Part shown: positions 5,255 to 53,849 of the stretch, piece after piece
How the letters are laid out: every line of letters starts with the position of its first letter
Numbering within the stretch: position 1 is the stretch's first letter
Source of the DNA: Acidobacteriota bacterium
GTDB taxonomy: Bacteria > Acidobacteriota > UBA6911 > RPQK01 > CBDEGM01
Length of the DNA stretch: 64,000 bases
Direction of reading: 5' to 3'
Assembly (NCBI GenBank): GCA_965237715.1
Contig: CBDEGM010000002.1
Span: 67,234-131,233, forward strand
Notes under the pieces: model-generated
What the model saw: the letters and a program-made list of their open reading frames with translations, nothing else
Told to the model about the DNA's origin: nothing
The model's database searches: none
Made by a program: the position numbers and the translations under genes

Positions 5255-6157
5255 GTGAGTTATTTTATGAAAAGGATCGTCGTATTTTTCTGGGTTTCAA
5301 CTTGGCTGTTTTCAGAATCCACGGACGTGGAGACACATGTTTTAGGAAGCATCGAAAGGATCTTGGAGCAGGAAGGCCGGGTACGTTTTTCTGACCTGTA
5401 CAACAGTGATCGATTTACCCCACAGGGAAAAGCCTATCTAGGGCGGCTCTATGAGGCCTTTTTTCAGATTCCTGGCTTTCTGAATCGGGAGCACCGGAGC
5501 ACAGGTCGTGTCCCTACAATCCGGGAGATCGCCGCCAAAGTCGGCATCAATATGGAAGCGGTGAACTTGCTTTTGACGGTGATGGCGTCAGACCCACGAA
5601 TCCCTCCCCTGTTCACCAGAAATCCTCACAGTCAGAAAATTGAATCGTTGAATCTGGAGAACATCAGTGCTTTTCTCGCTGCCTATGGAAATCAGGTTCA
5701 AGTCACCCAATGGGCGGGGAAGCCCTTGCCGTCTTTTCAGCTGGTTCGATTTAATGGGCAGACGATTTCTTCGCGTGACCTGACTGGCAAGAATGCGCTG
5801 ATCTATTTCTGGTTCACCGGTTGTCCTCCTTGTGTCAGGATTGCACCGATTTTGGCAGATCTGAACCGGAAATATGGGTCGTCGAATTTCCGTGTGATTG
5901 GATTCAACGCCGATCAGGTCCTGGGACTCACGACCTCGGATGAGGAAAGGAAAAACCACCTCGAGAAGCTCGGCGGCGGTTTTGCCAATGCTCACCTGGA
6001 CAGGGCGACGCGGCGCGCCTTTGGAAATGTCAACGTCTTTCCGACTCTATTTCTAGTCAAAAAGGACGGAATCATTTTTCGACATATGATCAACTATCAA
6101 AACCGCGAAATCCTTGAAGAAGTAATCAACAATCTCATTCCAGGTCCGGAAGAATGA
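5255..6157 (+). CDS. Thioredoxin-fold thiol:disulfide oxidoreductase (TlpA/ResA family) with an N-terminal extra domain and signal peptide
   Basis: 300 aa with the catalytic motif WFTGCPPC in a thioredoxin-like C-terminal domain and a hydrophobic N-terminus. Confidence 0.7.
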   Translation: MSYFMKRIVVFFWVSTWLFSESTDVETHVLGSIERILEQEGRVRFSDLYNSDRFTPQGKAYLGRLYEAFFQIPGFLNREHRSTGRVPTIREIAAKVGINMEAVNLLLTVMASDPRIPPLFTRNPHSQKIESLNLENISAFLAAYGNQVQVTQWAGKPLPSFQLVRFNGQTISSRDLTGKNALIYFWFTGCPPCVRIAPILADLNRKYGSSNFRVIGFNADQVLGLTTSDEERKNHLEKLGGGFANAHLDRATRRAFGNVNVFPTLFLVKKDGIIFRHMINYQNREILEEVINNLIPGPEE

Positions 6158-6219: not shown

Positions 6220-7551
6220 ATGAAGCTTTTCCGCGAGATCGGTCTGACATCTTCCTTTTTTCTAGTCATCGGGAATACGGTCGGAATTGGTATTTTTACC
6301 ACCTCCGGGTTGATTGCAGAGGAGCTGGGAAATTCCGTATGGCTGATTGCGGTGTGGGTTTTGGGTGGGGTGCTCGCCTTCATCGGCGCCGTTTGCTATT
6401 CCGTACTGGGAGTCCGCATCCCAAAAGCGGGAGGCGAGTATGCATTTCTCTATCCTTCCTACGGCCGCCTCCCTGCCTTCCTGTCCGGTTGGACTTCACT
6501 TCTGATCGGCTTTTCAGCACCCATCGCAGCCGCGGCTCTGGGTCTGGTCCACTACCTGCGTCCCTTCATTCCTGTGGAGGTCTCCGGGCCAGCGTGGACT
6601 CTGAAGGCAGTGGCCATGCTGGTCTTGCTGAGTGTGACCATTTTGCTCTCTCTGGGCCTCAAGTCTGGAGCTCGAGCCCATTCCCTGATTACGGTCGTGA
6701 ACTTCGCTGTGATGATCGTATTCGCGCTGCTAGTCCTTAGGCGCTCGGCAGGGGAACAAAACCTCGGCTTGACCTTGCAGCACGGTCTTTTTGATGTGCA
6801 CCCGTCTTCGTTGGGATCGGCGGTTGTCTTGGTGATGTTCGCCTACAGCGGATGGAATGCGGCTGCCTATATCGCCGAAGAAATCCGGGCTCCCGAACGG
6901 ACGATTCCACGGGCCCTGATCCTCGGGACGTTGGCGGTCATTGCAGCCTATCTTTCCATCAACTTTGCATATTTTTCAGCAGTACCAGTGGATCAGCTGA
7001 AAGGTAAGATCGCCGTGGCGGAAATCGCCGCCTCGGCAACCTTGGGAAATATGGGGCCAAGTCTGATCAGCGTGCTCATTGCGATCTCCATACTGAGCTC
7101 ACTGACTGCCATGTCCATTGCCGGTCCAAGAGTCTATTTTGCGATGTCGCGTGATCGGTTGTTTCCCAGGTGGATGGGTGAGATCCACCGAAAGAAGAAG
7201 GTACCTCTGAAATCCATCTGGTTTCAAAGCGGTGTGGCCGCAGGACTGATCGCGCTGGGAAACTTCTATCAGATTTTGCTTTATTCGGGCTTTATTCTAC
7301 TGCTTTTTGCAACCCTGACCGTCTCGACTCTGTTGACGGTAAGAAGAAAAGAGGGAGAATTATTCTGGTTCTGGACTCTGTACCGTCTCCTACCCGGCAT
7401 TTTTGTCGTTGCCAACAGCGGAGTTCTTATCAGCACAGTCTTCTCACATCCGGCGGAGACTCTTACCGGCCTGGCAACGGTGGCACTGGGCCTGCCAGTG
7501 TACCTGTATTACAGGAGGACCTCCACTTCCACCTCCACTGGTGGAAGTTGA
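6220..7551 (+). CDS. APC-superfamily amino acid permease
   Basis: 443 aa with 12 predicted hydrophobic segments. The N-terminal motif FLVIGNTVGIGIFTTSG is typical of APC transporters. Confidence 0.8.
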   Translation: MKLFREIGLTSSFFLVIGNTVGIGIFTTSGLIAEELGNSVWLIAVWVLGGVLAFIGAVCYSVLGVRIPKAGGEYAFLYPSYGRLPAFLSGWTSLLIGFSAPIAAAALGLVHYLRPFIPVEVSGPAWTLKAVAMLVLLSVTILLSLGLKSGARAHSLITVVNFAVMIVFALLVLRRSAGEQNLGLTLQHGLFDVHPSSLGSAVVLVMFAYSGWNAAAYIAEEIRAPERTIPRALILGTLAVIAAYLSINFAYFSAVPVDQLKGKIAVAEIAASATLGNMGPSLISVLIAISILSSLTAMSIAGPRVYFAMSRDRLFPRWMGEIHRKKKVPLKSIWFQSGVAAGLIALGNFYQILLYSGFILLLFATLTVSTLLTVRRKEGELFWFWTLYRLLPGIFVVANSGVLISTVFSHPAETLTGLATVALGLPVYLYYRRTSTSTSTGGS

Positions 7552-8860: not shown

Positions 8861-10295
8861 GAGACTGTCTCGGGTTTAGTTGAAAGTTGAGAGGCGGTTC
8901 GTCCGACCGACTCGTTAGAATCGGGTTGGTCAACAACCTTTTAAGGAGGAACCGCCATGAAGAAATCATATCGAATTGTCACCCGGAAGAACAGTCAGGG
9001 GCTGGCTGATTATCTGGCCCAGAACGGGCAACTGTTGCTCCCGATGGTGGAGCTGATCGAAGCCTCCCGGATGGCCATTGACGAGTTGATCGACATCCTG
9101 GGGCGAGCGAGCATGGAAGCGGTCTTGCAGCTTTCTGCCCGAAGTGTCGCCGGCGAAAAGCAACAAGGGCGCCCAGGCAAGCAGGTCGTTTGGTACGGCA
9201 CTCAGCCAGGGCGAGTCAGACTTTCGGAGCGGCAAGTGCGGGTTCGAAAGCCACGGCTGCGCAAGAAAGGCCAAGGTCGAGGCGGGGAGGTGGAGATCCC
9301 CGCCTATGAGGCGATCAACCGTAACGGGGAGCTGGGCAGCCGCATGCTGGAGATCTTGATGTGCAACGTTTCCACGCGCCACTACAGCCGCGTGATCCCC
9401 CAGATGGCCGACACGGTGGGAGTCAGCAAATCGTCCGTGAGCCGTCAGTTCATTGAGCAGAGCGGCCAGCAGCTGGAGCAGCTGGCCGAGCGACACTTTG
9501 ATGACGTTGAGTTTCTGATCATCTACATCGACGGCCTGGTCTTTGGCGAGCACCACGTGATCTGTGCCGCCGGCGTGGACTCGGAGGGCCAAAAGCACGT
9601 GCTGGGGCTGCGGGAAGGGGCCAGTGAAAACGCCGCCACCGCTACCTCCTTGCTGGAAGACCTGGTGGAGCGAGGCCTGGATTCCGGGCGACGCTATCTG
9701 TTTGTGATTGACGGCTCCAGGGCCCTGCGATGTGCCATTGACAAGGTCTTTGGCAAGGGCAGTCCGGTGCAGAGATGTCGTCGTCATAAGATTCGCAACG
9801 TGTGCGATCGATTGCCGGACGATCTGGCCGAGCAAGTCAAGTCAGTGATGCAGGCTGCTTATCGGCTGCCCTGGGAAGAAGGGAGGGTTCGGCTCAGAAA
9901 GCAGGCGGAGTGGCTCGAAGGGCTGCATCCCGATGCGGCAGCTAGCCTGCGAGAAGGTCTGGAAGAGACCTTCACCATCAATCGACTCGAGTTGTCTTCC
10001 TCCCTGCGCTTGTGTCTGGCCAGCACCAACCTGATTGAAAGCCCTCACTCTGGCGTGAGGATGCGGACCCGCCGAGTGAGCCGCTGGAAAGATAGCCAGA
10101 TGGTGCTGCGCTGGGCCGCCTCAGCCTTCCTGGAGACGGAGAAGAACTTCCGGCGCATCCAGGGCTACCAGGACCTCTGGATGCTGAAAGCCAAACTCAG
10201 AGACGAGGTTTCTATGGACGCCAAACGAAAGGTGGCTTAAGATCGTGCTCAACCTGAACCGCCCTTCACTTTCAACTGAGTTTGGGGCAGCCTCC
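8861..10295 (+). mobile_element. IS256-family insertion sequence, copy 1 (1435 bp), with an 8-bp target duplication tagaaaat
   Basis: Imperfect terminal inverted repeats: gagactgtctcgggtttagttgaaagttgagagg at one end and ggaggctgccccaaactcagttgaaagtgaaggg (reverse complement) at the other. Direct repeats tagaaaat at 8853-8860 and 10296-10303. It sits inside IS1380 copy A. Confidence 0.85.
8957..10240 (+). CDS. IS256-family (Mutator-type) DDE transposase
   Basis: 427 aa with the IS256 transposase architecture. It is more than 99% identical to the ORFs at 21334-22617 and 27012-28295. Confidence 0.85.
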   Translation: MKKSYRIVTRKNSQGLADYLAQNGQLLLPMVELIEASRMAIDELIDILGRASMEAVLQLSARSVAGEKQQGRPGKQVVWYGTQPGRVRLSERQVRVRKPRLRKKGQGRGGEVEIPAYEAINRNGELGSRMLEILMCNVSTRHYSRVIPQMADTVGVSKSSVSRQFIEQSGQQLEQLAERHFDDVEFLIIYIDGLVFGEHHVICAAGVDSEGQKHVLGLREGASENAATATSLLEDLVERGLDSGRRYLFVIDGSRALRCAIDKVFGKGSPVQRCRRHKIRNVCDRLPDDLAEQVKSVMQAAYRLPWEEGRVRLRKQAEWLEGLHPDAAASLREGLEETFTINRLELSSSLRLCLASTNLIESPHSGVRMRTRRVSRWKDSQMVLRWAASAFLETEKNFRRIQGYQDLWMLKAKLRDEVSMDAKRKVA

Positions 10296-26818: not shown

Positions 26819-26910
26819 GATTTCTCTACCGCGACCGACACCCCTTAGCCCCAACGGGGCGGTATGAAATAGCCAGGGGCGTCAGCCCCTGGATTCGGGG
26901 ATCATCCCTT

Positions 26911-45407: not shown

Positions 45408-46391
45408 TCAGAAAACGGCGTCTGCTCCCGAGGGCACGTAGCGATCCAGCTGGCCGAAGGGCTCAGAGGAGAGAACAAGCCCGATGCTCTCATCAAAGCG
45501 GAAGCCGTGTTCGAGGAGAAGAGCGACTGCAGCCCGGGCCACGCCGGGGATCCGCAGCCGAGCCGACGAGGAGCCCAAGTCCCGAGCGGCCCCCATGCCC
45601 AGGGTAAGGGCAGCAGGAAGATCCTCGGCACGAAGAACAGCCACAGGCCCCAGGACACCCGACTCGGTCACATAAAGGTATCCGATCACGGACTCAGCCC
45701 GATTGACGAGGAAGCCGTGCAGGCCGGGTATCTCGGCCCAGAGAGCATGGTCCTCGGGACGGCAATATCCCAGCACCGCACCGTCGATCCCGCTGAGCCG
45801 CTGGGAATCCACCCCGCCCGAGGGGAATGGCTCGAGAAACAGCTCCGCTTGATCCGACCCGCCCTCTGCCGACCCTTCCAGGCCGATCAGGGGGGTCTGA
45901 GGAAACATACCGCGCTTCGAATAGAGAGCATTGGAAGCGGGATTGATGGCCTCGGTGACCACGGTGAGGATGCTCTCTTCCGGGCTTGCTGCCCGGCAGC
46001 GCCGAAGCAGCTCGCCCCCGACTCCCTGTGCCTGAAACTGAGGGATCACATGGAGAGCAGCCAGATACCAGACTTGTTCTCTCTGGGTGGCGATTCCGGA
46101 GCCGACCAACTCCCCATCCGACTCGGCAACCCAAAAGCGCTCCGCATCGTAGCGGAGAACATTGCGTCGAAAGGCTAGAGCCCGTGCTCTGGAGGCGATG
46201 CGGCCGCGAGTGGTGCCGCGACGGCGTTTCTGATCCAGATCGCGGGAAGCCTCCACGACGATCTCATAGCTTCGTTCAAAATCTTTCTCACATGCGCGTC
46301 GATAAACCAGGTCTGTCACGTCCTCGCCATCAAGTGATCGGTCGTGAAGAGAGGCCGGCAATGAGGGTATCCACGTGCATGACGAACTCAA
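45408..46391 (-). CDS. GNAT-family N-acetyltransferase (two-lobed)
   Basis: 327 aa with an acetyl-CoA-binding motif context (QFQAQGVGGELLRRC). Confidence 0.5.
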   Translation of the reverse strand: MSSSCTWIPSLPASLHDRSLDGEDVTDLVYRRACEKDFERSYEIVVEASRDLDQKRRRGTTRGRIASRARALAFRRNVLRYDAERFWVAESDGELVGSGIATQREQVWYLAALHVIPQFQAQGVGGELLRRCRAASPEESILTVVTEAINPASNALYSKRGMFPQTPLIGLEGSAEGGSDQAELFLEPFPSGGVDSQRLSGIDGAVLGYCRPEDHALWAEIPGLHGFLVNRAESVIGYLYVTESGVLGPVAVLRAEDLPAALTLGMGAARDLGSSSARLRIPGVARAAVALLLEHGFRFDESIGLVLSSEPFGQLDRYVPSGADAVF

Positions 46392-47373
46392 AGGCGTTAT
46401 GAATCAATTGCCCCTGCTCGATAGGTTTGCCGGTTAGCCAGTAGCCATCCGGATGCTGGCATTTCAGGAACCAGTCGCCCATCCGATAGCTCCAGGCTTC
46501 ATGGGCAGGCTCTCCTGTGACAAGGTAAAGAAGAGAACTGCCCCAGCCGCTCTTACACACGGGACCGTAATCGAACTGCCGCTCGGTAGCGGACATCGAG
46601 AACGCCTGATAGCGGCGCGCCAGCTCGAGGTACTCGGGCTTCGGCTCCGCCAGGTGGAGCCGACAGAGAAAGCCGGCTGCGATGCCTCCAATGGTCCAGC
46701 GCTGAAGACGCGCCACCTGGTTCTCGACCACATACCAGAACTGTTTCTCCTCAGAGTATTCTGTAGTGGGCGCCTGGCGTGAGCGGGACCAATCGTAGTA
46801 GAAACGTTCCGGAAGCTCCGTTTGCGCATCATAGATCCGCTGTAAAAACCGATAGACGGCCCGCGCCCCCTCCCAATGCCCCGTGGCCAGGCAAGCAAAA
46901 CCAGGTCCCGCAGCATAAGGGATGCTCTGATCATCACTCATCGAACCGTCGGGCATGCGGTCATTGGCAAAGCCGCCTGAGACCGGATCCTGCCAGCGGA
47001 GCATCCCTTCCATGAGTCCCCGAGAGAGGTCGTACTGGCCCGCCATGTGTGCTCCCACAATCAGGGCGGAGTCGCGGTAGGCCCAGGCATCATTCAGGAC
47101 CCGGTAGGGGCCCCCGATGGTTCCGTCCGACTGAAGCATGTTGCGGCGAATCCAGCCACAGATCGCGCTGGCTGCCTCAGTCTCTCCCACCAGGGAGAAG
47201 CTCCAGGCCCCCCGGTAGAAGAAGAATCCCTGCCGCGGGTCGCCAATCGATCCATCCGGGTTCATCTGGGCCAGAAGCCACTCGGTGGCGCGGCGGCGCA
47301 TGGCTCGGTAGGCGGCAAGCCGTTCCCGTTTCTTGCTGATGGTGGTGTCCGTCACCGTGTCGACATTCCTCAT
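46330..47373 (-). CDS. Hypothetical protein with prenyltransferase/terpene-cyclase-like alpha/alpha-toroid repeats; its annotated start codon lies inside the IS1380 terminus
   Basis: Repeats NPDGSIG, DGTIGGP, QDPVSGGF and QHPDGYW. The first ATG (47371-47373) is 11 nt inside the IS1380 end, and a GTG lies at 47357-47359 just outside it. Confidence 0.4.
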   Translation of the reverse strand: MRNVDTVTDTTISKKRERLAAYRAMRRRATEWLLAQMNPDGSIGDPRQGFFFYRGAWSFSLVGETEAASAICGWIRRNMLQSDGTIGGPYRVLNDAWAYRDSALIVGAHMAGQYDLSRGLMEGMLRWQDPVSGGFANDRMPDGSMSDDQSIPYAAGPGFACLATGHWEGARAVYRFLQRIYDAQTELPERFYYDWSRSRQAPTTEYSEEKQFWYVVENQVARLQRWTIGGIAAGFLCRLHLAEPKPEYLELARRYQAFSMSATERQFDYGPVCKSGWGSSLLYLVTGEPAHEAWSYRMGDWFLKCQHPDGYWLTGKPIEQGQLIHNAFEFVMHVDTLIAGLSSRPIT

Positions 47374-47468
47374 ATCAACTTCGGAAGGACCTTTTCCGGT
47401 CTCCCCAGTGAATGACCACAACTTATCAGACCGCCAACCTTGCCTCAAGTGGTCTTTGGTCCTCTGTC
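47360..47468. mobile_element. IS1380-family copy B, transposase-distal terminal 109 bp, separated from the rest of the element by the 47469-50643 insertion
   Basis: Identical to 8450-8558 of copy A and continuous with 50644 onward once the insertion and its 9-bp duplication are removed. Confidence 0.65.
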
Positions 47469-47825
47469 CGGCTTTGCCCATAAACCCTGTTCTGCACATT
47501 AACGCCTCTTTCCTGCACAAAAACTCCTTCCGAAACTACTCATCGTCCTCTATCTCGAACTTGAAGTCCGACCGTCATATCCTCATCGTTTTTTCTGACC
47601 TCATGGATGAATTTAAGTAGCTGCCCGATGAGGTTGTTAACCCCCTTGCTTATCTGTAGAATCTTCATTCTCAAGCGAGCGTGACGGGTGCGGAAACACC
47701 AGCCACACTCTGAACCGATCCTCCTGTCGTAGAGGAAGAGCGGTCTAGGACTTATTCTACGCCCATCCGGGCAGACCTCTATCCCTCTACGGCAGGCAGG
47801 ATCGCATTTCCGAAAGGAAGGCACG

Positions 47826-48380
47826 ATGCTGCACGTTGCCACAGCTCTCCTGTTTCTCCAACTGATGCCTGGTGCTCCAGTCCGGGTGGGCGAAACCAAA
47901 ACAGATCCTTTCACTGACGAGTTCAGGCTGGCGATGGTCGGAGTCGGGGCAGAGGGGAAACTTCGACTAGGTTCAAGTTGCTCTGAAAAAGACGAGAGGA
48001 ATTGGTACTCATTGAGTTTCCACATTGAATCGGATGAGGCATTCGCTACGTTTGGCGGGGAAGATGGTAGTTCCATGGAATGGCAGCTCGGCAGCCTGAG
48101 ATTTGATAATGGAGATATCGAGCCATTCCGCTTCAAATTCCTTCTCGGCTCGCTATGGTTGGGATGGCCTGAGCTCAAAGACGGAGAGCGCCTTCGGGAC
48201 GACTCTGCCCATAAGTTGGTTCTCAGGTTCCCACACCATGACCGGCTACGCATCCAGGTGGTTGCTGCTAAAGATATAGTCTTTGAGGATTTCGACATCT
48301 CGGAAGTCACCACTGACACACTGGAAACTCTGTGTACGTGCGCTCACGAACCAAACCCATGCGTTAGCAAGCAGGACTAA
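47826..48380 (+). CDS. Hypothetical protein (cargo of the transposon, about 50% GC)
   Basis: 184-aa ORF with no recognisable motifs. Its codon usage and GC differ from the flanking genes. Confidence 0.35.
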   Translation: MLHVATALLFLQLMPGAPVRVGETKTDPFTDEFRLAMVGVGAEGKLRLGSSCSEKDERNWYSLSFHIESDEAFATFGGEDGSSMEWQLGSLRFDNGDIEPFRFKFLLGSLWLGWPELKDGERLRDDSAHKLVLRFPHHDRLRIQVVAAKDIVFEDFDISEVTTDTLETLCTCAHEPNPCVSKQD

Positions 48381-48656
48381 TCGCCAAAACAAACCTCAGA
48401 GGCGGCGCGTCAGGATCGCCCCTCTTGACACGCGATTTAAAAATCCAACAATCGCTGATCCTTGTCCCTTTCGTTCTTCATTGGGAGTCCCCAGCCAAGT
48501 TTCTTTGCCTTGATAAAACCCTCTCTCGCGCCTTCCAATTCTTTGAACCTGGCTACTGCCGGCTCCAGTTCCTTCATTTGGCTTTCTATGTCGGCAATCA
48601 TTGGGTCCAGATCAGGCCGACGATCCGATTTTTTTGAATTTCCCTACTTGTCTCCT

Positions 48657-48685
48657 TGACATTGTTAATCATTTGTCTTACGATT
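48657..48685 (+). promoter_or_regulatory. Sigma-70-like promoter (TTGACA, 17 nt spacer, TACGAT) ending 3 nt before the ATG at 48689; possibly leaderless
   Basis: ccTTGACAttgttaatcatttgtctTACGATttccattATG. Confidence 0.3.
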
Positions 48686-48688
48686 TCC

Positions 48689-49168
48689 ATTATGAAAAAG
48701 AATAAAAGCACAAGACTTAGAGAATACCTTGAGGAAATTGGAGCGTTGCGGAAGCAACGGGACGAGATCACCCTGGAAATATTCCGATCGATTCGCCTGC
48801 TGAAGTTTACTGCCCGATCGATTCAGGGAGCTGGAGGTAAGTTCAGGGAGGCTATTGATGTACTCGTCAATCGGCTCGACAAGGAGTGTCCCGGTCTGAC
48901 CGATGCGATCAAAATAGTGCTGCGCCGCGCTCCCGGGAAAATCTTCAGCCCCATCATGATCCGAGAAGAGCTTGAGGATAACGGCTTCACATTCACTAAG
49001 TACCGAAGCAACCCATTGGTATCCATCAACTCGGTCCTTAAGAGAATCGACGACGATGAAGCTATCGCCATAGAAGCTGAGGGTCGGACGGGTTATCAAT
49101 GGAAAATAATGGGGAGCGTAGCACTTCTCAGGATGTTGGATGAAGAGGGAGATGAGGAAGAGAAATGA
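48689..49168 (+). CDS. Hypothetical protein with an acidic C-terminus (cargo gene)
   Basis: The start MKKNKSTRLREYL follows a consensus -35/-10. 159 aa, ending EEGDEEEK. No recognisable domain. Confidence 0.35.
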   Translation: MMKKNKSTRLREYLEEIGALRKQRDEITLEIFRSIRLLKFTARSIQGAGGKFREAIDVLVNRLDKECPGLTDAIKIVLRRAPGKIFSPIMIREELEDNGFTFTKYRSNPLVSINSVLKRIDDDEAIAIEAEGRTGYQWKIMGSVALLRMLDEEGDEEEK

Positions 49169-49174
49169 AGGAAG

Positions 49175-49271
49175 CGGCGGGGTCGCATAGCGGCCAATTG
49201 CACCCGACTCCAAATCGGGAGAGCCAGATAGACCCTAGCTCCGTGGGTTCGAATCCCACCCCCGCCGCCCA
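49175..49271 (+). tRNA. tRNA-like gene with a selenocysteine-tRNA/allo-tRNA-type fold (8-bp acceptor, 5-bp T arm, long variable arm) but a CCA (Trp) anticodon, with an encoded 3' CCA
   Basis: Acceptor CGGCGGGG/CCCCGCCG. D arm GCA..TGC with loop TAGCGGCCAAT. Anticodon stem CCCGA/TCGGG with loop CTCCAAA. Variable arm about 23 nt with a GAGC/GCTC stem. T arm GTGGG-TTCGAAT-CCCAC. Discriminator C followed by CCA. Confidence 0.55.
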
Positions 49272-49405
49272 TGATTACAAACCGGTTCTGCCGAGTGCCA
49301 CAAACACCCGGCAGAACCTAAACCCGCAAGGTGCCAATGACACCCATGCAAGCCGTTCCCCGCATTATGGGGTCCATGGCCCTTGCAAAGCAAGAGGAAA
49401 AAACC

Positions 49406-49771
49406 ATGAACCCCAGACAGATCAAAGCAGTTGAAATCGCATCCCGATTTAAAATTCAAGAGAAGGAAGGGAAGTGGGTCGTTCCTTCCCAGAGCAAAAG
49501 CGGCACCTACGCCGTCGGGCTCAACGGGACTCCCCGCTGCACCTGCCCTGACTTCGACACTCGCGGGGTAGTCTGCAAGCACATCATGGCCGTCCAGATA
49601 ACGATTGAAGAACTGCTCAACGGAAACGGCACCAAGACCGTTAAGGAGAGCGTCAGCGTCACCGAGACGGTCAAGCGCACCTACACGCAGGACTGGCCCA
49701 CCTACAACAACTCCCAGGTCCACGAGAAGGACCAGTTCCAGGTCTTGCTCAAGGAACAGTGGCGTTCCTGA
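49406..49771 (+). CDS. Transposase OrfA: SWIM-type zinc-finger domain
   Basis: CTCPDFDTRGVVCKH has the CxC...CxH SWIM signature. RBS gaggaaaa. It overlaps orfB by 167 nt. Confidence 0.55.
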   Translation: MNPRQIKAVEIASRFKIQEKEGKWVVPSQSKSGTYAVGLNGTPRCTCPDFDTRGVVCKHIMAVQITIEELLNGNGTKTVKESVSVTETVKRTYTQDWPTYNNSQVHEKDQFQVLLKEQWRS

Positions 49772-50621
49772 GCCCACCAGGGATAAAACTGGGCGCAAGC
49801 CTATCCCTGTATCGGATGCTCTCTTTGCGGCTGCGTTCAAGGTCTACAGCACGGTTTCCGGACGCCGTTTCATGAGCGATCTGAGGGACGCCCACACCAA
49901 GGGTTTCATCGGGAAGGCTCCCCACTACAACAGCATCTTCAAGAAACCCGAGTTGACTGAAACTCTCCAGGGGCTTATCACCCAATCGGCCCTTCCTCTG
50001 GCGACGGTTGAGCGAACCTTCGCCGTGGACGCCTCTGGCTTCAGCACTTCCCGGTTCGACAGGTGGGTTGAGTACAAGTGGGGGGAAAAAGGCTCCAGGC
50101 GTGAATGGCTCAAGGCGCACCTGATGTGCGGCACGCAGACCAATATCGTCACCGCTGCCCAGGTCACGGACGGCAAGAAGAACGATGCTCCCTTTCTCCC
50201 ACCCCTGCTGAACACGACCGCTCAGTACTTTCCGGTGGAGGAAGTTTCGGCAGACAAGGGATACCTCAGCCGTCAGAATGTCCACGCCATCGCTGAGGCC
50301 GGGGCGACCCCCTACATCGCCTTCAAGTCCAACAGCAAACCCGAGGACAAGATCACGAGTGCGTGGAACCAGATGTTCCGACACTTCAGCTCTCGGCGGG
50401 AGGAATTTCTGGACCGTTACCACCGGCGCTCGAACGTCGAGACTGCCTTCTCGATGATTAAGCGGAAGTTCGGAGACTTCCTCAGAAGCAAAGGCGACAC
50501 GTCGATGGTGAACGAGGCTCTTTGCAAGATCCTCTGCCACAACATCGTCGTGGTGATCCACGAAATGTCCGAACTGGGGGTCCAGCCCGTTTTTGTGCAG
50601 AAACCTAGTGTTGCCCATTAA
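49605..50621 (+). CDS. Transposase OrfB: IS4/IS5-type DDE domain
   Basis: D (FAVDASGF), D (VSADKGYLS) and E within YHRRSNVETAFSMIKRKFG, the IS4/IS5 R-x3-E-x3-K signature. It is in the +1 frame relative to orfA. Confidence 0.6.
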   Translation: MKNCSTETAPRPLRRASASPRRSSAPTRRTGPPTTTPRSTRRTSSRSCSRNSGVPEPTRDKTGRKPIPVSDALFAAAFKVYSTVSGRRFMSDLRDAHTKGFIGKAPHYNSIFKKPELTETLQGLITQSALPLATVERTFAVDASGFSTSRFDRWVEYKWGEKGSRREWLKAHLMCGTQTNIVTAAQVTDGKKNDAPFLPPLLNTTAQYFPVEEVSADKGYLSRQNVHAIAEAGATPYIAFKSNSKPEDKITSAWNQMFRHFSSRREEFLDRYHRRSNVETAFSMIKRKFGDFLRSKGDTSMVNEALCKILCHNIVVVIHEMSELGVQPVFVQKPSVAH

Positions 50622-50643
50622 TTACCTGTTTTTAGGCAAAGCC

Positions 50644-52140
50644 CCTCTGTCCATCAAAAGCGCCTCTGATCCCTCGGTTTCCCAGGTGGCTTTTGGTCAA
50701 AAACCTGATCAATAGAGACACCTCCAGCGGTTCAATCAGAAACCCTCGGCGCTAGGCTGTCATCCATCTCAATCGATCAATCCGAGACAACAGCCCGGCC
50801 CATATATCCTTGCTTACCGCTACCTCCGCCATCTGAAACGTGACGATCCGGCTATGGCGGATCACCTTCGCTCCGATCTTGATCAGTTTGGTCAACAGGC
50901 TGCGAAGGGACCAATGTTTGATTTTTCTGGGAAGGACCAGCCGCCGTAGAAAATTGCCCAGGTTGCAGGCCAAGACAAACAGAGCCAACCTCACCTGATT
51001 CGGGACAAAGCGCTGGCAGGACAGGCGAGTCCAGTGCAACGCATACTTGCCTTCCTTGATCCACTGCTCGGCTGTGCCACGACCGTTATAGAAGTGAACC
51101 ACCCCTGAGGCTTGTGCGCTCATATTGGTGACGATGAAACCCACCCTCGGAAAGAGTTCTCCGCGATGCCACCCGACCTTGGCAATCACCCGGCGAGGCC
51201 GGTCCCAACTGGCGGCTTGATATTGGAAATCGGCGAACCAAACGATAGGCTTTCGGGGCGGACGGCCCACAGGCCGGGTAAGCAGGTGTTCAATCTCCGC
51301 CTGAAGCACCTCGTTGGCAGGAAGCCGGATGGCATACAAAAAGCCCTTCTCCTCCAAGTATTCATAAACGTCCGGCTTGGCAAAGGCAGCATCCCCACGA
51401 AAGTATTTGCGGACTGTTTTCTTCTCGTAGCGAGCCACGATTGGTTCCAGCATCTCCTTCCAACCATCCGCGCTGTGAACATTGCCGGGCCGAAGCATTG
51501 CACCTTCGCAATCTCCGAACTGGTTGAAACAAAACAGGGGATGGTAGCAAGTACATCGGAAATGGCCGTTGTAGGCAGAGGCTTCCTGCTCGCCATGGAC
51601 AGGACTGGCTGAGCTGTCCATATCCAGAATGATGCGTCGATGAGTTGTTTTCTCCAGCGCTCTTTCTACCCATCGGCCATTAACTTCCGAAAGGGCTTTG
51701 AGGTTCCCCTGGACGGACAGCATCTCGGTCTCAAATCGACCCATGGTGTTGGCGCTGGCGGCCTTCTTCTTGTCCATCTTCTTCCCGGTGATCCTCCGCA
51801 TAGTCGGATCCACCGATAGACGATGGGCATCGTTGACATCTTCATAGCCAGCCAGTCGACTGTATACCGATTGGCGCAGCAACGACGCCAGGTCGTGCTG
51901 GATGTTACGCCCTGTCCGCGAATCGCGAAAAACGGAGGGAACACTATCGAATAACACCAACGCTTCGTCCAAATCACGATAGGCGAGAAGCCCAGCATCC
52001 GAGGTGACCTTAGCCCCATGAAATTCAAGCCTCAAACTGCCATCAAAACCGGCCTTCAAACCTTCACCCTTTGGGTCAGCCATTTCTTGCTCCCTTTATG
52101 CTCTATATCTACTTTGATTATAGTAGTTTACATCGATTAA
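50644..52140 (-). mobile_element. IS1380-family copy B, main body (transposase-proximal end not precisely resolved)
   Basis: Carries the intact 443-aa transposase. Its left part is collinear with copy A. Confidence 0.6.
50752..52083 (-). CDS. IS1380-family DDE transposase
   Basis: 443 aa with an N-terminal ...LRLEFHGAKVTSDAGLLAYRDLDEAL... region and a DDE core. Confidence 0.65.
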   Translation of the reverse strand: MADPKGEGLKAGFDGSLRLEFHGAKVTSDAGLLAYRDLDEALVLFDSVPSVFRDSRTGRNIQHDLASLLRQSVYSRLAGYEDVNDAHRLSVDPTMRRITGKKMDKKKAASANTMGRFETEMLSVQGNLKALSEVNGRWVERALEKTTHRRIILDMDSSASPVHGEQEASAYNGHFRCTCYHPLFCFNQFGDCEGAMLRPGNVHSADGWKEMLEPIVARYEKKTVRKYFRGDAAFAKPDVYEYLEEKGFLYAIRLPANEVLQAEIEHLLTRPVGRPPRKPIVWFADFQYQAASWDRPRRVIAKVGWHRGELFPRVGFIVTNMSAQASGVVHFYNGRGTAEQWIKEGKYALHWTRLSCQRFVPNQVRLALFVLACNLGNFLRRLVLPRKIKHWSLRSLLTKLIKIGAKVIRHSRIVTFQMAEVAVSKDIWAGLLSRIDRLRWMTA

Positions 52141-52353: not shown

Positions 52354-53034
52354 TCAACTTAGATATTGTGGGTAGAGGTGCTTGAGCTTGACGCGAGCAT
52401 CCTCGATCCTAAACTGCCAATCTACTCCGATTTGCATTCGATTGCGATCTTCCCACCACGCCTGGGTGTGGCGGGTGAGTTGCTGGCGAGTTGGGATGCG
52501 ACGATCTAGGCATTGCCGGCTCAACGCGCTCAACTCGATTTCCGCCACGTTCAACCAACTGCCATGCTTGGGGGTGTAGTGAATCCGGAGCCGCTCCGCC
52601 AAGCGGCGAGCTTTTTGAGGCTCAAAGGCCTCGTAGAGCGAGCCCGCCTTGTGCGTGTTGAGGTTGTCACACACCAGGATGACCCGGGCCGCATCTGGAA
52701 AATCCTCTTCCAGGAGCTGCTGAATCTCCCGTGCCCAATCCACCTTGGTCCGCTGCTCGCGCACGCTCACTTTGCGCCAGGCCGCCAGAGGTTGAACGAA
52801 CAAAAACAGGGCCGCCGTCCCACATCTCTCATATTCGTAATCGTAGCGCTCGACCCGCTCCCCTCCGAGCGGGATCGGCTGGCGAGTTTCTCCAATCAAC
52901 TGCTGCGGCTGCTCGTCCATGCACACCACCGGATATTTCCCATCCAAGGGACGCTTGTAAACTTCCAGAACGTCTTCCATATGGGCCACGAAGTCCGCAT
53001 TCTGCCGGGGCGGGATCACCCAACACTTCCTCAA
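52354..53034 (-). CDS. IS630-family transposase DDE-domain part, OrfB
   Basis: DDE motifs VVCMDEQ, VILVCDNLNTH and SWLNVAEIELSAL. It is in a different frame from OrfA across the TTTAAAAAAAC run. Confidence 0.65.
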   Translation of the reverse strand: MRKCWVIPPRQNADFVAHMEDVLEVYKRPLDGKYPVVCMDEQPQQLIGETRQPIPLGGERVERYDYEYERCGTAALFLFVQPLAAWRKVSVREQRTKVDWAREIQQLLEEDFPDAARVILVCDNLNTHKAGSLYEAFEPQKARRLAERLRIHYTPKHGSWLNVAEIELSALSRQCLDRRIPTRQQLTRHTQAWWEDRNRMQIGVDWQFRIEDARVKLKHLYPQYLS

Positions 53035-53574: not shown

Positions 53575-53849
53575 CTAGTACTCCCTGCCATAAATACGAT
53601 GACGTATGCGGATGGGGCTTGCGAGGAGAGGTCGCGAAGAGAGGAGGAGGCGATGCCGAGGCATCGTCGACGACGAACGACAAAGAGATCACCCGCAACC
53701 ACCATCCGCCCAAAGGGTTAGGGCGGGACGGGCCCATCTCTTTGTTGCTCCTCCTCGCCGATGTCTGGCATCGACTCGTCGTCGCGCCTCGATCTGGTCT
53801 CCGTCGCGTTCCCAACATACGTCATCGTATTTATGGCAGGGAGTACTAG
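53575..53849. repeat. MITE-like element, family 1 copy B (275 bp) with perfect 34-bp terminal inverted repeats ctagtactccctgccataaatacgatgacgtatg
   Basis: 53575-53608 is the reverse complement of 53816-53849. The core is about 85% identical to 312-534 in the inverted orientation. Confidence 0.75.

Follow-up and report, generated by a model that had tools for sequence, protein, structure and literature searches.

The window analysed here, a 64,000-nucleotide stretch of contig CBDEGM010000002.1 from an Acidobacteriota bacterium, contains a complete and well-folded transfer RNA (tRNA) gene that combines a class-II body of the tRNA-Ser type with the tryptophan anticodon CCA. This gene, tRNA(CCA), is the middle part of a three-part module: it is preceded by orfA, which encodes a predicted winged-helix protein, and followed by the gene of a transposase with SWIM and DDE_Tnp_1 domains, and the module is carried by a transposon with relatives in other genomes. 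The tRNA is neither a decayed selC gene nor a strict allo-tRNA. Its most likely function, to which we would give an even chance on the sequence evidence, is that of a mobile missense tRNA that is charged by seryl-tRNA synthetase (SerRS) and reads UGG. Throughout the family, the tRNAs nearly always carry the anticodon of an amino acid other than that of the body, together with an encoded CCA and a paired -1:73 position.

Only a single tRNA, tRNA-Trp(cca), was returned by ARAGORN for the window, on the + strand at 49175-49271, exactly the boundaries given in a preliminary description made from the sequence alone. The general tRNA model of Rfam (RF00005) matches 49176-49267 over its full length with 54.6 bits (gathering score 29; E = 5.4e-9), so that the cloverleaf drawn earlier also holds against a covariance model. 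Within the tRNA clan this model is the best Rfam match, ahead of tRNA-Sec, and the tRNA-Sec model found no match in the window. The minimum-free-energy (MFE) fold has a z score of -2.9 and is more stable than all 200 of 200 shuffled sequences. Each part claimed for the cloverleaf (eight acceptor pairs, 5-bp T-stem, T-loop, variable arm and CCA tail) can be read. The acceptor consists of eight stacked pairs, C49175:G49267 followed by GGCGGGG/CCCCGCC; the T-stem is GTGGG/CCCAC (5 bp) and closes the loop TTCGAAT; and the D-arm has a 3-bp stem (GCA/UGC) with a U.U mismatch, the pair C11:G24 and an 11-nt loop with GG. The anticodon stem of 5 bp lies between A26 and A44, and its loop CTCCAAA presents the anticodon CCA, as had been read previously and as called by ARAGORN. 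The variable region of 23 nt is made up of a 21-nt hairpin with one unpaired base on either side, and the CCA at 49269-49271 is encoded. All cloverleaf stems are intact, as are the conserved tertiary positions U8, G18G19 and U33 and the T-loop. The Rfam alignment assigns a 7/5 acceptor/T branch, a long variable arm and G73, which is the class-II (Ser/Leu/Tyr) type.

The body is of the serine type in that G73 and the D-arm are as in control tRNA-Ser genes; in the comparison set G73 is present in all tRNA-Ser genes, and position 73 is A in the genes for Leu and Tyr. Relatives such as that of locus L018 align best to genuine tRNA-Ser genes (loci from other genomes are given by L numbers; all relatives of the element come from metagenome-assembled genomes, MAGs, or from metagenome sequences). 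With canonical class-II tRNA-Ser, tRNA(CCA) shares the 7/5 branch, the 3-bp D-stem with C11:G24, the D-loop GG, the variable-arm hairpin, G73 and A36-A37-A38. It differs in C35, which gives CCA and not CGA or another of the serine anticodons NGA and GCU, in the conserved -1:73 pair and in being transposon-borne. The anticodon CCA is a single change, at position 35, from serine CGA, with the A36-A37-A38 context retained, and all class-II anticodons of the family that end in A36 are likewise one position-35 change from serine NGA with A36-A37-A38 kept. Canonical tRNA-Trp shares CCA and G73 with the window tRNA; its class-I body, with a variable loop of 4-5 nt and A1:U72, is not found here, the variable region being 23 nt and the 1:72 pair G:C.

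The eighth acceptor pair joins position -1 to the discriminator base 73. Watson-Crick pairing at -1:73 occurs in 18 of 19 tRNAs borne by insertion sequences (ISs) versus 21 of 55 control tRNA genes from unrelated contigs, counts that shared ancestry inflates; it takes the form C:G on G73 bodies, G:C on four His-type bodies, and U:A and A:U once each. Because the upstream flanks are otherwise unrelated, C-1 is being maintained by selection. The closest relative (L002-L004) has the same C-1:G73 with CCA directly after it, and 18 related tRNAs read G-CCA, whereas the window tRNA ends GCCCA. Eight plus five pairs can be drawn in the window copy, giving a 13-bp 8/5 branch followed by C and CCA, with G73 itself paired. 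Because this copy carries one extra C, the arrangement of 8 bp, discriminator and CCA (the tRNA-Sec register) is peculiar to it. The 8/5 geometry of the preliminary description accordingly survives as a pair count, the eighth pair being conserved or covarying in the family, and is doubtful as a Sec-like register, which depends on a base unique to this copy. Both the extra C and the transposase frameshift described below are read from a single 12x assembly. The acceptor end of the family is similar to that of tRNA-His in having a -1:73 pair with CCA directly after it, and four members (L016, L023, L033, L045) have an actual G-1:C73; the class-II members differ from tRNA-His in carrying C-1:G73 on a Ser-type body.

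The structure of the tRNA is under selection, as judged from sequence comparison within the family. The window tRNA and that of L002, L003 and L004 are identical at 64 of 92 positions (70%), and both keep the CCA anticodon, the encoded CCA and every stem. Compensatory changes distinguish the window from L002 in the D-stem (GCA/UGC versus GAU/AUC) and at 29:41 (C:G versus G:C), and the variable-arm hairpin is a different one. Covariation was scored over 13 class-II members with a model comprising the 7+1-bp acceptor, the 3-bp D-stem, the 5-bp anticodon stem, four basal variable-arm pairs and the 5-bp T-stem. Pairing was found in 97.5% of cells, and 20 of 25 pairs, among them all five of the T-stem, are supported by changes on both sides; none of 500 shuffles reached this, and slid controls were 43-55% paired. 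Six tRNAs with the anticodon GCA have the same anticodon loop on different stems. Since loops are kept (CCA in two, GCA in six) while stems diverge, the anticodon itself is under selection, a point in favour of decoding or of a factor that recognizes the anticodon.

Comparison with known tRNA types places the gene apart from two to which it had been likened, tRNA-Sec and allo-tRNA. Like bacterial tRNA-Sec (selC), it has a long variable arm and SerRS as its likely charging enzyme, and the window copy alone adds the formal 8-bp acceptor, 5-bp T-stem, one unpaired base and CCA. Beyond this stem count the shape does not fit: the D-arm has 3 bp and an 11-nt loop with GG where tRNA-Sec has a 6-bp stem and a 4-nt loop, the anticodon is CCA in place of UCA, the base left unpaired is a C and G73 takes part in a pair, the extra C is absent from the relatives, and in the Rfam clan competition the general tRNA model comes out ahead. 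A Sec-like 6-bp D hairpin present in the MFE fold was rejected, since two acceptor pairs are lost in forming it and the L002 sequence does not allow it. The earlier suggestion of a decayed selC is contradicted by the completeness of the gene and by its nearest relative (70% identical), which keeps every stem by compensatory changes, and CCA. The defining marks of an allo-tRNA are a 12-bp acceptor/T branch, split 8/4 or 9/3, and a D-arm like that of tRNA-Sec, with a long stem and a tetraloop (Mukai et al., 2017, NAR 45:2776; PMC5389517). Set against this published description, the branch of the window tRNA is 7/5 with a -1:73 pair and its D-arm is of the usual class-II kind, and the same is true of its class-II relatives. 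The T-stem has its full 5 bp and the acceptor 7 bp (8 with -1:73), extension of the acceptor into 8/65 would bring together U.C in the window tRNA and U.U in L005 and L054, and the anticodon stem is of 5 bp and not lengthened; the name allo-tRNA therefore fails on both the 12-bp branch and the Sec-like D-arm (PMC5389517).

Several features are nevertheless shared with the allo-tRNAs and other irregular tRNAs that Mukai et al. (2017) described. The hosts are soil Acidobacteria, the variable arm is long and comes with G73 and a predicted Ser identity, and the non-serine anticodons are highly varied; His-type tRNAs with G-1 and Thr anticodons occur, as do irregular tRNAs in tandem (in L030 here), and transposon-related and toxin-antitoxin genes are close by, L002 carrying Gp49/HTH (helix-turn-helix) genes. 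The window tRNA has the long variable arm with G73 and the non-serine anticodon, is Acidobacterial and lies near transposon/toxin-antitoxin genes. The published set comprises 35 anticodons and only hinted at a link between tRNA and transposon, mentioning one pseudogene that overlaps a transposon-related open reading frame (ORF); the transposon, its ends, orfA and multi-copy mobility were not defined there (PMC5389517). No description of an IS family with a conserved orfA-tRNA module, or of a tRNA as a regular IS component, was found in the searchable literature, which misses most subscription papers.

That the tRNA is transposon-borne, as previously proposed, is confirmed by inverted repeats, a 9-bp duplication and homologous elements with a tRNA at the same place. 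The element is a 3174-bp IS5-like transposon (47470-50643) with terminal inverted repeats and the 9-bp target duplication CCTCTGTCC, and its order is left repeat, 184-residue cargo ORF, orfA, tRNA, hairpin, transposase and right repeat (Table 1). The window and L002 elements both begin and end GGCTTTGCC..., with subterminal TTCTGCACAAAAAC motifs, and the exact terminal motif occurs in the window only at the left end and, inverted, at 50628-50643. Positions 48437-50567, which cover orfA, tRNA and transposase, are 80.5% identical to L002 over 2157 bp, and 47469-47525 is homologous to the L002 element at either end, in direct orientation at one and inverted at the other. The 9-bp duplications of relatives are GTTCGGCGA (L005), CCCGGCATT (L006), CAATTCCTT (L044) and AGTCGACGC (L002). 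GC content is 0.46-0.53 around the tRNA versus about 0.57-0.62 in the flanking genome. The cargo ORF has no Pfam, NCBIfam or PADLOC match; at the corresponding place the L002 element holds Gp49/HTH toxin-antitoxin-like genes instead. The element resembles IS5-family transporter ISs in its DDE_Tnp_1 transposase, terminal inverted repeats, fixed-length target duplication, identical copies and passenger genes; it departs from them in the N-terminal SWIM zinc finger, the 9-bp length of the duplication and the conserved module of winged-helix orfA and tRNA.

The tRNA begins 7 nt past the stop codon of orfA. By homology the transposase starts at ATG 49406, 134 nt downstream of the tRNA, and GTG 49331 is not the start; the earlier account of the context, a tRNA just after a low-GC ORF (of 158 residues) and upstream of a SWIM and DDE_Tnp_1 transposase, is correct except for the spacing, which had been put at 60 nt. 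The transposase is frameshifted by a 5-nt indel relative to L002, outside a homopolymer, and scores 130 bits against NCBIfam transpos_IS5_2, whose cut-off is 140. With this frameshift and a GCCCA end in place of the GCCA of the family, the window copy is probably partly decayed. The hairpin after the tRNA keeps its position in L002 (~6588-6625) and L005 (~5880-5915) and differs in sequence with compensatory changes, the following TAAACCCGCAAGGTG being invariant; it has no U-tract and is therefore not a typical terminator. The possibility that the tRNA is an insertion target or, as had been suggested, an integration-site remnant was rejected: in the multi-copy units, each bounded by a 9-bp duplication of its own, the tRNA and about 1 kb of upstream sequence lie inside, the gene is complete, and the mobile element is a DDE transposon and not an integrase island.

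Table 1. Coordinates of tRNA(CCA), its parts and the transposon that carries it (positions in the window).
Feature	Position	Strand	Evidence
tRNA(CCA)	49175..49271	+	ARAGORN, Rfam, fold, covariation across 13 class-II relatives
C-1	49175		
Acceptor stem	49176-49182 / 49260-49266		
U8	49183		
D-stem	49185-49187 / 49199-49201		
Anticodon stem	49203-49207 / 49215-49219		
Anticodon	49210-49212		
Variable arm	49221-49241		
T-arm	49243-49259		
G73	49267		
CCCA	49268-49271		
Left target-site duplication, 9 bp, CCTCTGTCC	47461..47469	.	Read directly; identical 9-mer at 50644-50652
Left terminal inverted repeat	47470..47524	+	Starts GGCTTTGCCCATAAAC; subterminal TTCTGCACA / TTCCTGCACAAAAAC motifs; homologous to both L002 element ends
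Cargo ORF, 184 residues, variable part of element	47826..48380	+	Gene call
Promoter-like site TTGACA-17-TACGAT, just upstream of orfA	48656..48684	+	10/12 consensus positions; consensus match only
orfA, 158 residues, partner gene of tRNA	48692..49168	+	Homologous ORFs before tRNA in tRNA-bearing elements
Hairpin after tRNA, GGTTCTGCCGAGTG / CACCCGGCAGAACC, then conserved TAAACCCGCAAGGTG	49284..49318	+	Position-matched hairpins in L002, L005
Transposase N-terminal part, residues 1-117 of 414-residue relative, SWIM zinc finger	49406..49756	+	tblastn versus L002: 88% identity, frame 2; Pfam SWIM
Transposase C-terminal part, residues 121-401, DDE_Tnp_1	49761..50621	+	tblastn versus L002: 81% identity, frame 3 (residues 121-401 at 49761-50594); Pfam DDE_Tnp_1 1e-26
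Right terminal inverted repeat	50589..50643	-	GGCTTTGCCTAAAAAC ... TTTCTGCACAAAAAC on - strand
Right target-site duplication, 9 bp, CCTCTGTCC	50644..50652	.	Read directly

The AlphaFold2 (AF2) model of the orfA product (predicted local distance difference test score 78) consists of a long N-terminal helix and a winged-helix domain, and its best PDB matches in Foldseek are forkhead, Fur, PerR, MarR and PadR winged helices, with weak E-values of 0.02-0.2. Pfam, NCBIfam and PADLOC gave no match for orfA, and no known defence system was matched by PADLOC for orfA together with the transposase. An enzyme or a defence protein was considered and rejected, since the fold search returned only winged-helix DNA-binding domains; orfA is most simply a regulator, a predicted winged-helix DNA binder. 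It has one close homologue family (71% identity), whose loci carry tRNA(CCA) next and then an intact 414-residue SWIM and DDE_Tnp_1 transposase. Measured against L002, dN/dS comes to 0.18 in orfA and to 0.12-0.13 in the transposase gene. The association with the tRNA is close: in every element with a tRNA, an orfA homologue ends 8-154 nt ahead of it, and in many the distance is 7-16 nt; among 20 genome loci detected with an orfA hidden Markov model (HMM) the tRNA lies just downstream in 19. More distant orfA-like proteins have no tRNA after the gene.

The C-termini of orfA proteins show a recurrent motif. Many of them (L016, L027, L047, L054 and L204-L209; for example L054:5083-5553) end (D/E)DIPF, in forms such as TDEDIPF, DGDIPF, EDDIPF and NDIPF; the window orfA is without this tail and ends DEEGDEEEK. 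The single-stranded DNA-binding protein (SSB) of Escherichia coli ends DDDIPF, a C-terminal partner-binding tail, and the resemblance suggests that DIPF-type orfA tails might recruit SSB-interacting replication or repair proteins.

Relatives of the transposase occur at 79 loci of GTDB species genomes, mostly in Acidobacteriota/Terriglobia MAGs, with some in Vicinamibacterales, Eremiobacterota and Alphaproteobacteria, and orfA-tRNA-transposase elements were found among them, answering the question raised in the preliminary description of whether related genomes hold the same element. About a quarter of the 79 loci have a same-strand tRNA 130-370 nt upstream of the transposase, and the orfA-tRNA module is absent from about two thirds of the transposase-family loci. 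Rfam confirms 11 relatives as tRNA (45-66 bits); three of the 19 tRNAs beside orfA escaped ARAGORN because of variable arms of 35-40 nt, and these too are confirmed by Rfam (54-58 bits). BLAST of the family tRNAs against E. coli genomes for body type gave no match, with short queries and a very large database. Mobility, in the form of identical copies at different sites, is seen in relatives and not for the window copy: L005, L006 and L044 of one MAG are three copies of a 2533-bp unit with tRNA(UAU), 99.9-100% identical and each with its own 9-bp duplication; L054 and L057 of another MAG are two 100% identical copies of a 2469-bp unit with tRNA(UAA); and L204 and L205, on one 5.8-Mb contig, have an identical orfA-tRNA stretch.

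The bodies of the family tRNAs are of several kinds. Class-II G73 bodies carry the anticodons CCA, GCA (six elements), UAU, UAA and CAA, and also UUA. Bodies with the tRNA-His hallmark G-1:C73 carry UGU, GUU, UUG and GGU, and bodies with a tRNA-Glu-like D-arm carry UCC and UUG, the His and Glu labels being taken from textbook features; one class-I body has the serine anticodon GGA without a long arm. Neither these anticodon counts nor the -1:73 counts are phylogenetically independent. Closely related transposases carry tRNAs of different classes, and the homology between L002 and L005 begins inside the T-arm, from which it follows that the tRNA, or the whole orfA-tRNA module, has been exchanged between elements.

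Individual relatives have further features. The sister element of 5.1 kb at L002:2934-7991 holds a Gp49 (HigB-like) and HTH antitoxin-like pair and small ORFs between its left end and orfA, and this cargo echoes the toxin-antitoxin association reported for allo-tRNAs. At L030:5551-5726, two tandem tRNAs, a Glu-like body with UCC and a class-II body with GCA, stand 6 nt apart between orfA and transposase and resemble the 'polycistrons of irregular tRNAs' of soil metatranscriptomes. The tRNA(UAA) at L054:5570-5663 is an ARAGORN call with the T-loop UCCGAAU instead of UUCGAAU and is not listed at the Rfam gathering threshold. The tRNA-transposase spacer of ~270 nt in L019, L029 and L083 (~5720-6000) contains a reverse-strand zinc-ribbon-like small ORF (CPKCKSPYWNKP...) and a palindromic TTGACA/TATACT-rich region just ahead of the transposase start; L083 has orfA and the spacer without a tRNA. 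On a Gemmatimonadaceae contig (L207:3603-3870), after orfA come a truncated tRNA-like stub and, next, a second long-arm tRNA-like sequence with UAA, with no family transposase called beside them. L005 also has a group II intron catalytic domain at 9265-9376 (-; RF00029, 43.8 bits), roughly 2 kb downstream from its tRNA(UAU) element. Among the matches listed in a metagenome pattern scan for CCA relatives, at least 12 contigs (L091, L100, L101, L108, L121, L137, L140, L165, L173, L182, L183, L187) have a long-arm tRNA(CCA) with G73 and are without the family orfA or transposase; these contigs are mostly AT-rich and possibly phage, and the GC-rich L182 is nearest to the window tRNA in style among the matches listed.

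How tRNA(CCA) would act as a missense tRNA can be set out in steps. A promoter-like site lies upstream and the tRNA follows the stop codon of orfA by just 7 nt, so that orfA and the tRNA are proposed to be co-transcribed from this site. The tRNA would then be excised by the normal tRNA-processing enzymes. A long variable arm together with G73 constitutes the identity set of SerRS, which ignores the anticodon; SerRS would thus charge tRNA(CCA) with serine without reading CCA, an anticodon that would have been derived from serine CGA, and the Ser-charged tRNA would decode UGG and produce Trp-to-Ser missense. For the transposon the benefit might be regulated mistranslation or toxicity under the control of the winged-helix orfA, or a role in processing. 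Two precedents are available: in E. coli, natural long-variable-arm tRNAs of Acidobacteria that bear Leu anticodons led to Ser insertion at CUC/UUA, and their induction was toxic; and SerRS accepts tRNAs of 8/5, 9/4 and 8/4 shape (PMC5389517).

Several observations weigh against serine charging and UGG decoding. The transposase and orfA themselves use UGG at conserved Trp positions, so that efficient Trp-to-Ser decoding would damage the element's own proteins. Anticodon CCA and G73 are the main bacterial identity elements of tryptophanyl-tRNA synthetase (TrpRS), and partial or exclusive charging with Trp through them is possible. With its extra 3' C and a broken transposase beside it, the window tRNA is possibly non-functional; the extra C could itself be an assembly error in the 12x contig. 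The paired -1:73 position might alter RNase P cleavage and the use of EF-Tu. The metagenome scan gave, among the matches listed, no further close relative of tRNA(CCA) and none linked to orfA or transposase. Finally, some irregular Acidobacterial tRNAs are charged and unused in translation, and allo-tRNA(UAU) variants were inactive in E. coli (PMC5389517).

Other explanations of the tRNA have been weighed against SerRS-dependent missense decoding. It may serve the transposon itself, either as RNase P/Z punctuation that splits the orfA and transposase mRNAs and sets the level of transposase, or as an RNA cofactor or decoy. Such a role, which we regard as unlikely, would account for the fixed place of the tRNA between orfA and transposase while its sequence and type vary, for its start 7-16 nt past the orfA stop in many elements and for the conserved hairpin with compensatory changes after it; an effect of the conserved -1:73 pair on cleavage by RNase P would be expected, and some related irregular tRNAs are charged and not used in translation (PMC5389517). 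Yet any tRNA would suffice for punctuation and a native anticodon would be harmless, and native anticodons are almost absent. Conservation of the anticodon loops within subgroups (GCA in six, CCA in two) on diverging stems is not explained either, the anticodon has no complementarity to leader or target sites, and the lack of the module in about two thirds of transposase loci indicates that it is not essential for transposition.

A genuine extra tRNA-Trp, charged by TrpRS through CCA and G73 with the class-II body tolerated, would instead provide added or nuclease-resistant UGG decoding without mistranslation. We consider this improbable, even though the loop CUCCAAA and G73 are present and the genes of the element require UGG to mean Trp. 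The long arm and G73 make the molecule a SerRS substrate in any case, and its first pair is G1:C72, as opposed to the A1:U72 of the two class-I (78-nt) metagenome tRNA-Trp genes, in L103 and L181, both of which start with A1. Moreover, relatives exist that the enzyme cognate to their anticodon could not charge, such as UAA or CAA on G73 class-II bodies (leucyl-tRNA synthetase needs A73) and GGA on a class-I body, so that mismatch appears to be the rule in the family. To be set on the other side are the retention of CCA in two diverged copies and the occurrence of long-variable-arm tRNA(CCA) genes with G73 in unrelated metagenome contigs as well. There is, lastly, a slim chance that the window tRNA is a dead relic in a decaying element and is no longer matured or charged. 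The split of the transposase by the 5-nt indel, the GCCCA end against GCCA in 18 relatives and the position of the element in a pile-up of other insertion sequences would suit a relic; the intact stems and conserved tertiary positions, together with an intact orfA under purifying selection versus L002, would not, and GCCCA can still be read as an 8-bp stem, one base and CCA, the tRNA-Sec register that SerRS accepts (PMC5389517).

Three further roles were tried and rejected. Self-recoding of the transposase or orfA is not supported, as TGG in L002 falls on conserved Trp columns of a 58-sequence codon-aware alignment; in other elements the codons matching each tRNA fall on standard-residue columns, and the element with an ochre suppressor has no in-frame TAA. 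The tRNA loops do not appear to steer target choice, since neither the anticodon loop nor the variable-arm loop has anything in common with the five target duplications. A specifier of the T-box kind in the leader of the transposase was dismissed because the leaders of CCA and UAU elements align closely and no position tracks the anticodon.

The surroundings of the element contain other mobile and RNA features. To the left, a 389-residue gene (46330-47499, -) seems to start inside the left repeat and was probably truncated by the insertion. To the right, insertion sequences pile up, with transposase genes at 50752-52083 (-; IS1380-type DDE_Tnp_1_4, 1.8e-128) and 52354-53034 (-; IS630-type DDE_3). 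Beyond them is a perfect 34-nt inverted repeat (53575-53608 / 53816-53849, 207 nt apart) with an imperfect nested repeat (53659-53689 / 53736-53766), which may form a small element of the miniature inverted-repeat transposable element (MITE) kind. Elsewhere in the window, Rfam matched a cobalamin riboswitch at 2788-2982 (-; RF00174, 83.3 bits) and the Acido-Lenti-1 small RNA at 26847-26892 (-; RF01687, 52.2 bits), which fits an Acidobacteriota host.

Natural tRNAs in which identity and anticodon are mismatched are raw material for codon reassignment and deliberate mistranslation, and have so far been mostly isolated curiosities. Here they are a regular and structurally conserved part of an actively transposing family with defined ends, target duplications and a partner regulator gene. 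As a tentative proposal, possible and by no means established, the tRNA is a working part of an undescribed kind of insertion sequence, composed of a regulator, a mismatched 8-bp-acceptor tRNA and a SWIM-DDE transposase, that spreads regulated mistranslation horizontally among soil bacteria, with exchange of cassettes; it might act as a toxin/addiction or stress module, or else as an RNA cofactor. For genetic-code engineering, class-II bodies with a 7/5 branch and a -1:73 pair are new natural scaffolds, and an intact element (of the L005 type) or the orfA-tRNA module is a concrete and cloneable system. With it come the questions of whether bacteria tolerate or exploit horizontally acquired mistranslating tRNAs, how these tRNAs are controlled and why a transposon should carry them. 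Judged from the sequences of its members, this family of elements may spread mistranslation between genomes.

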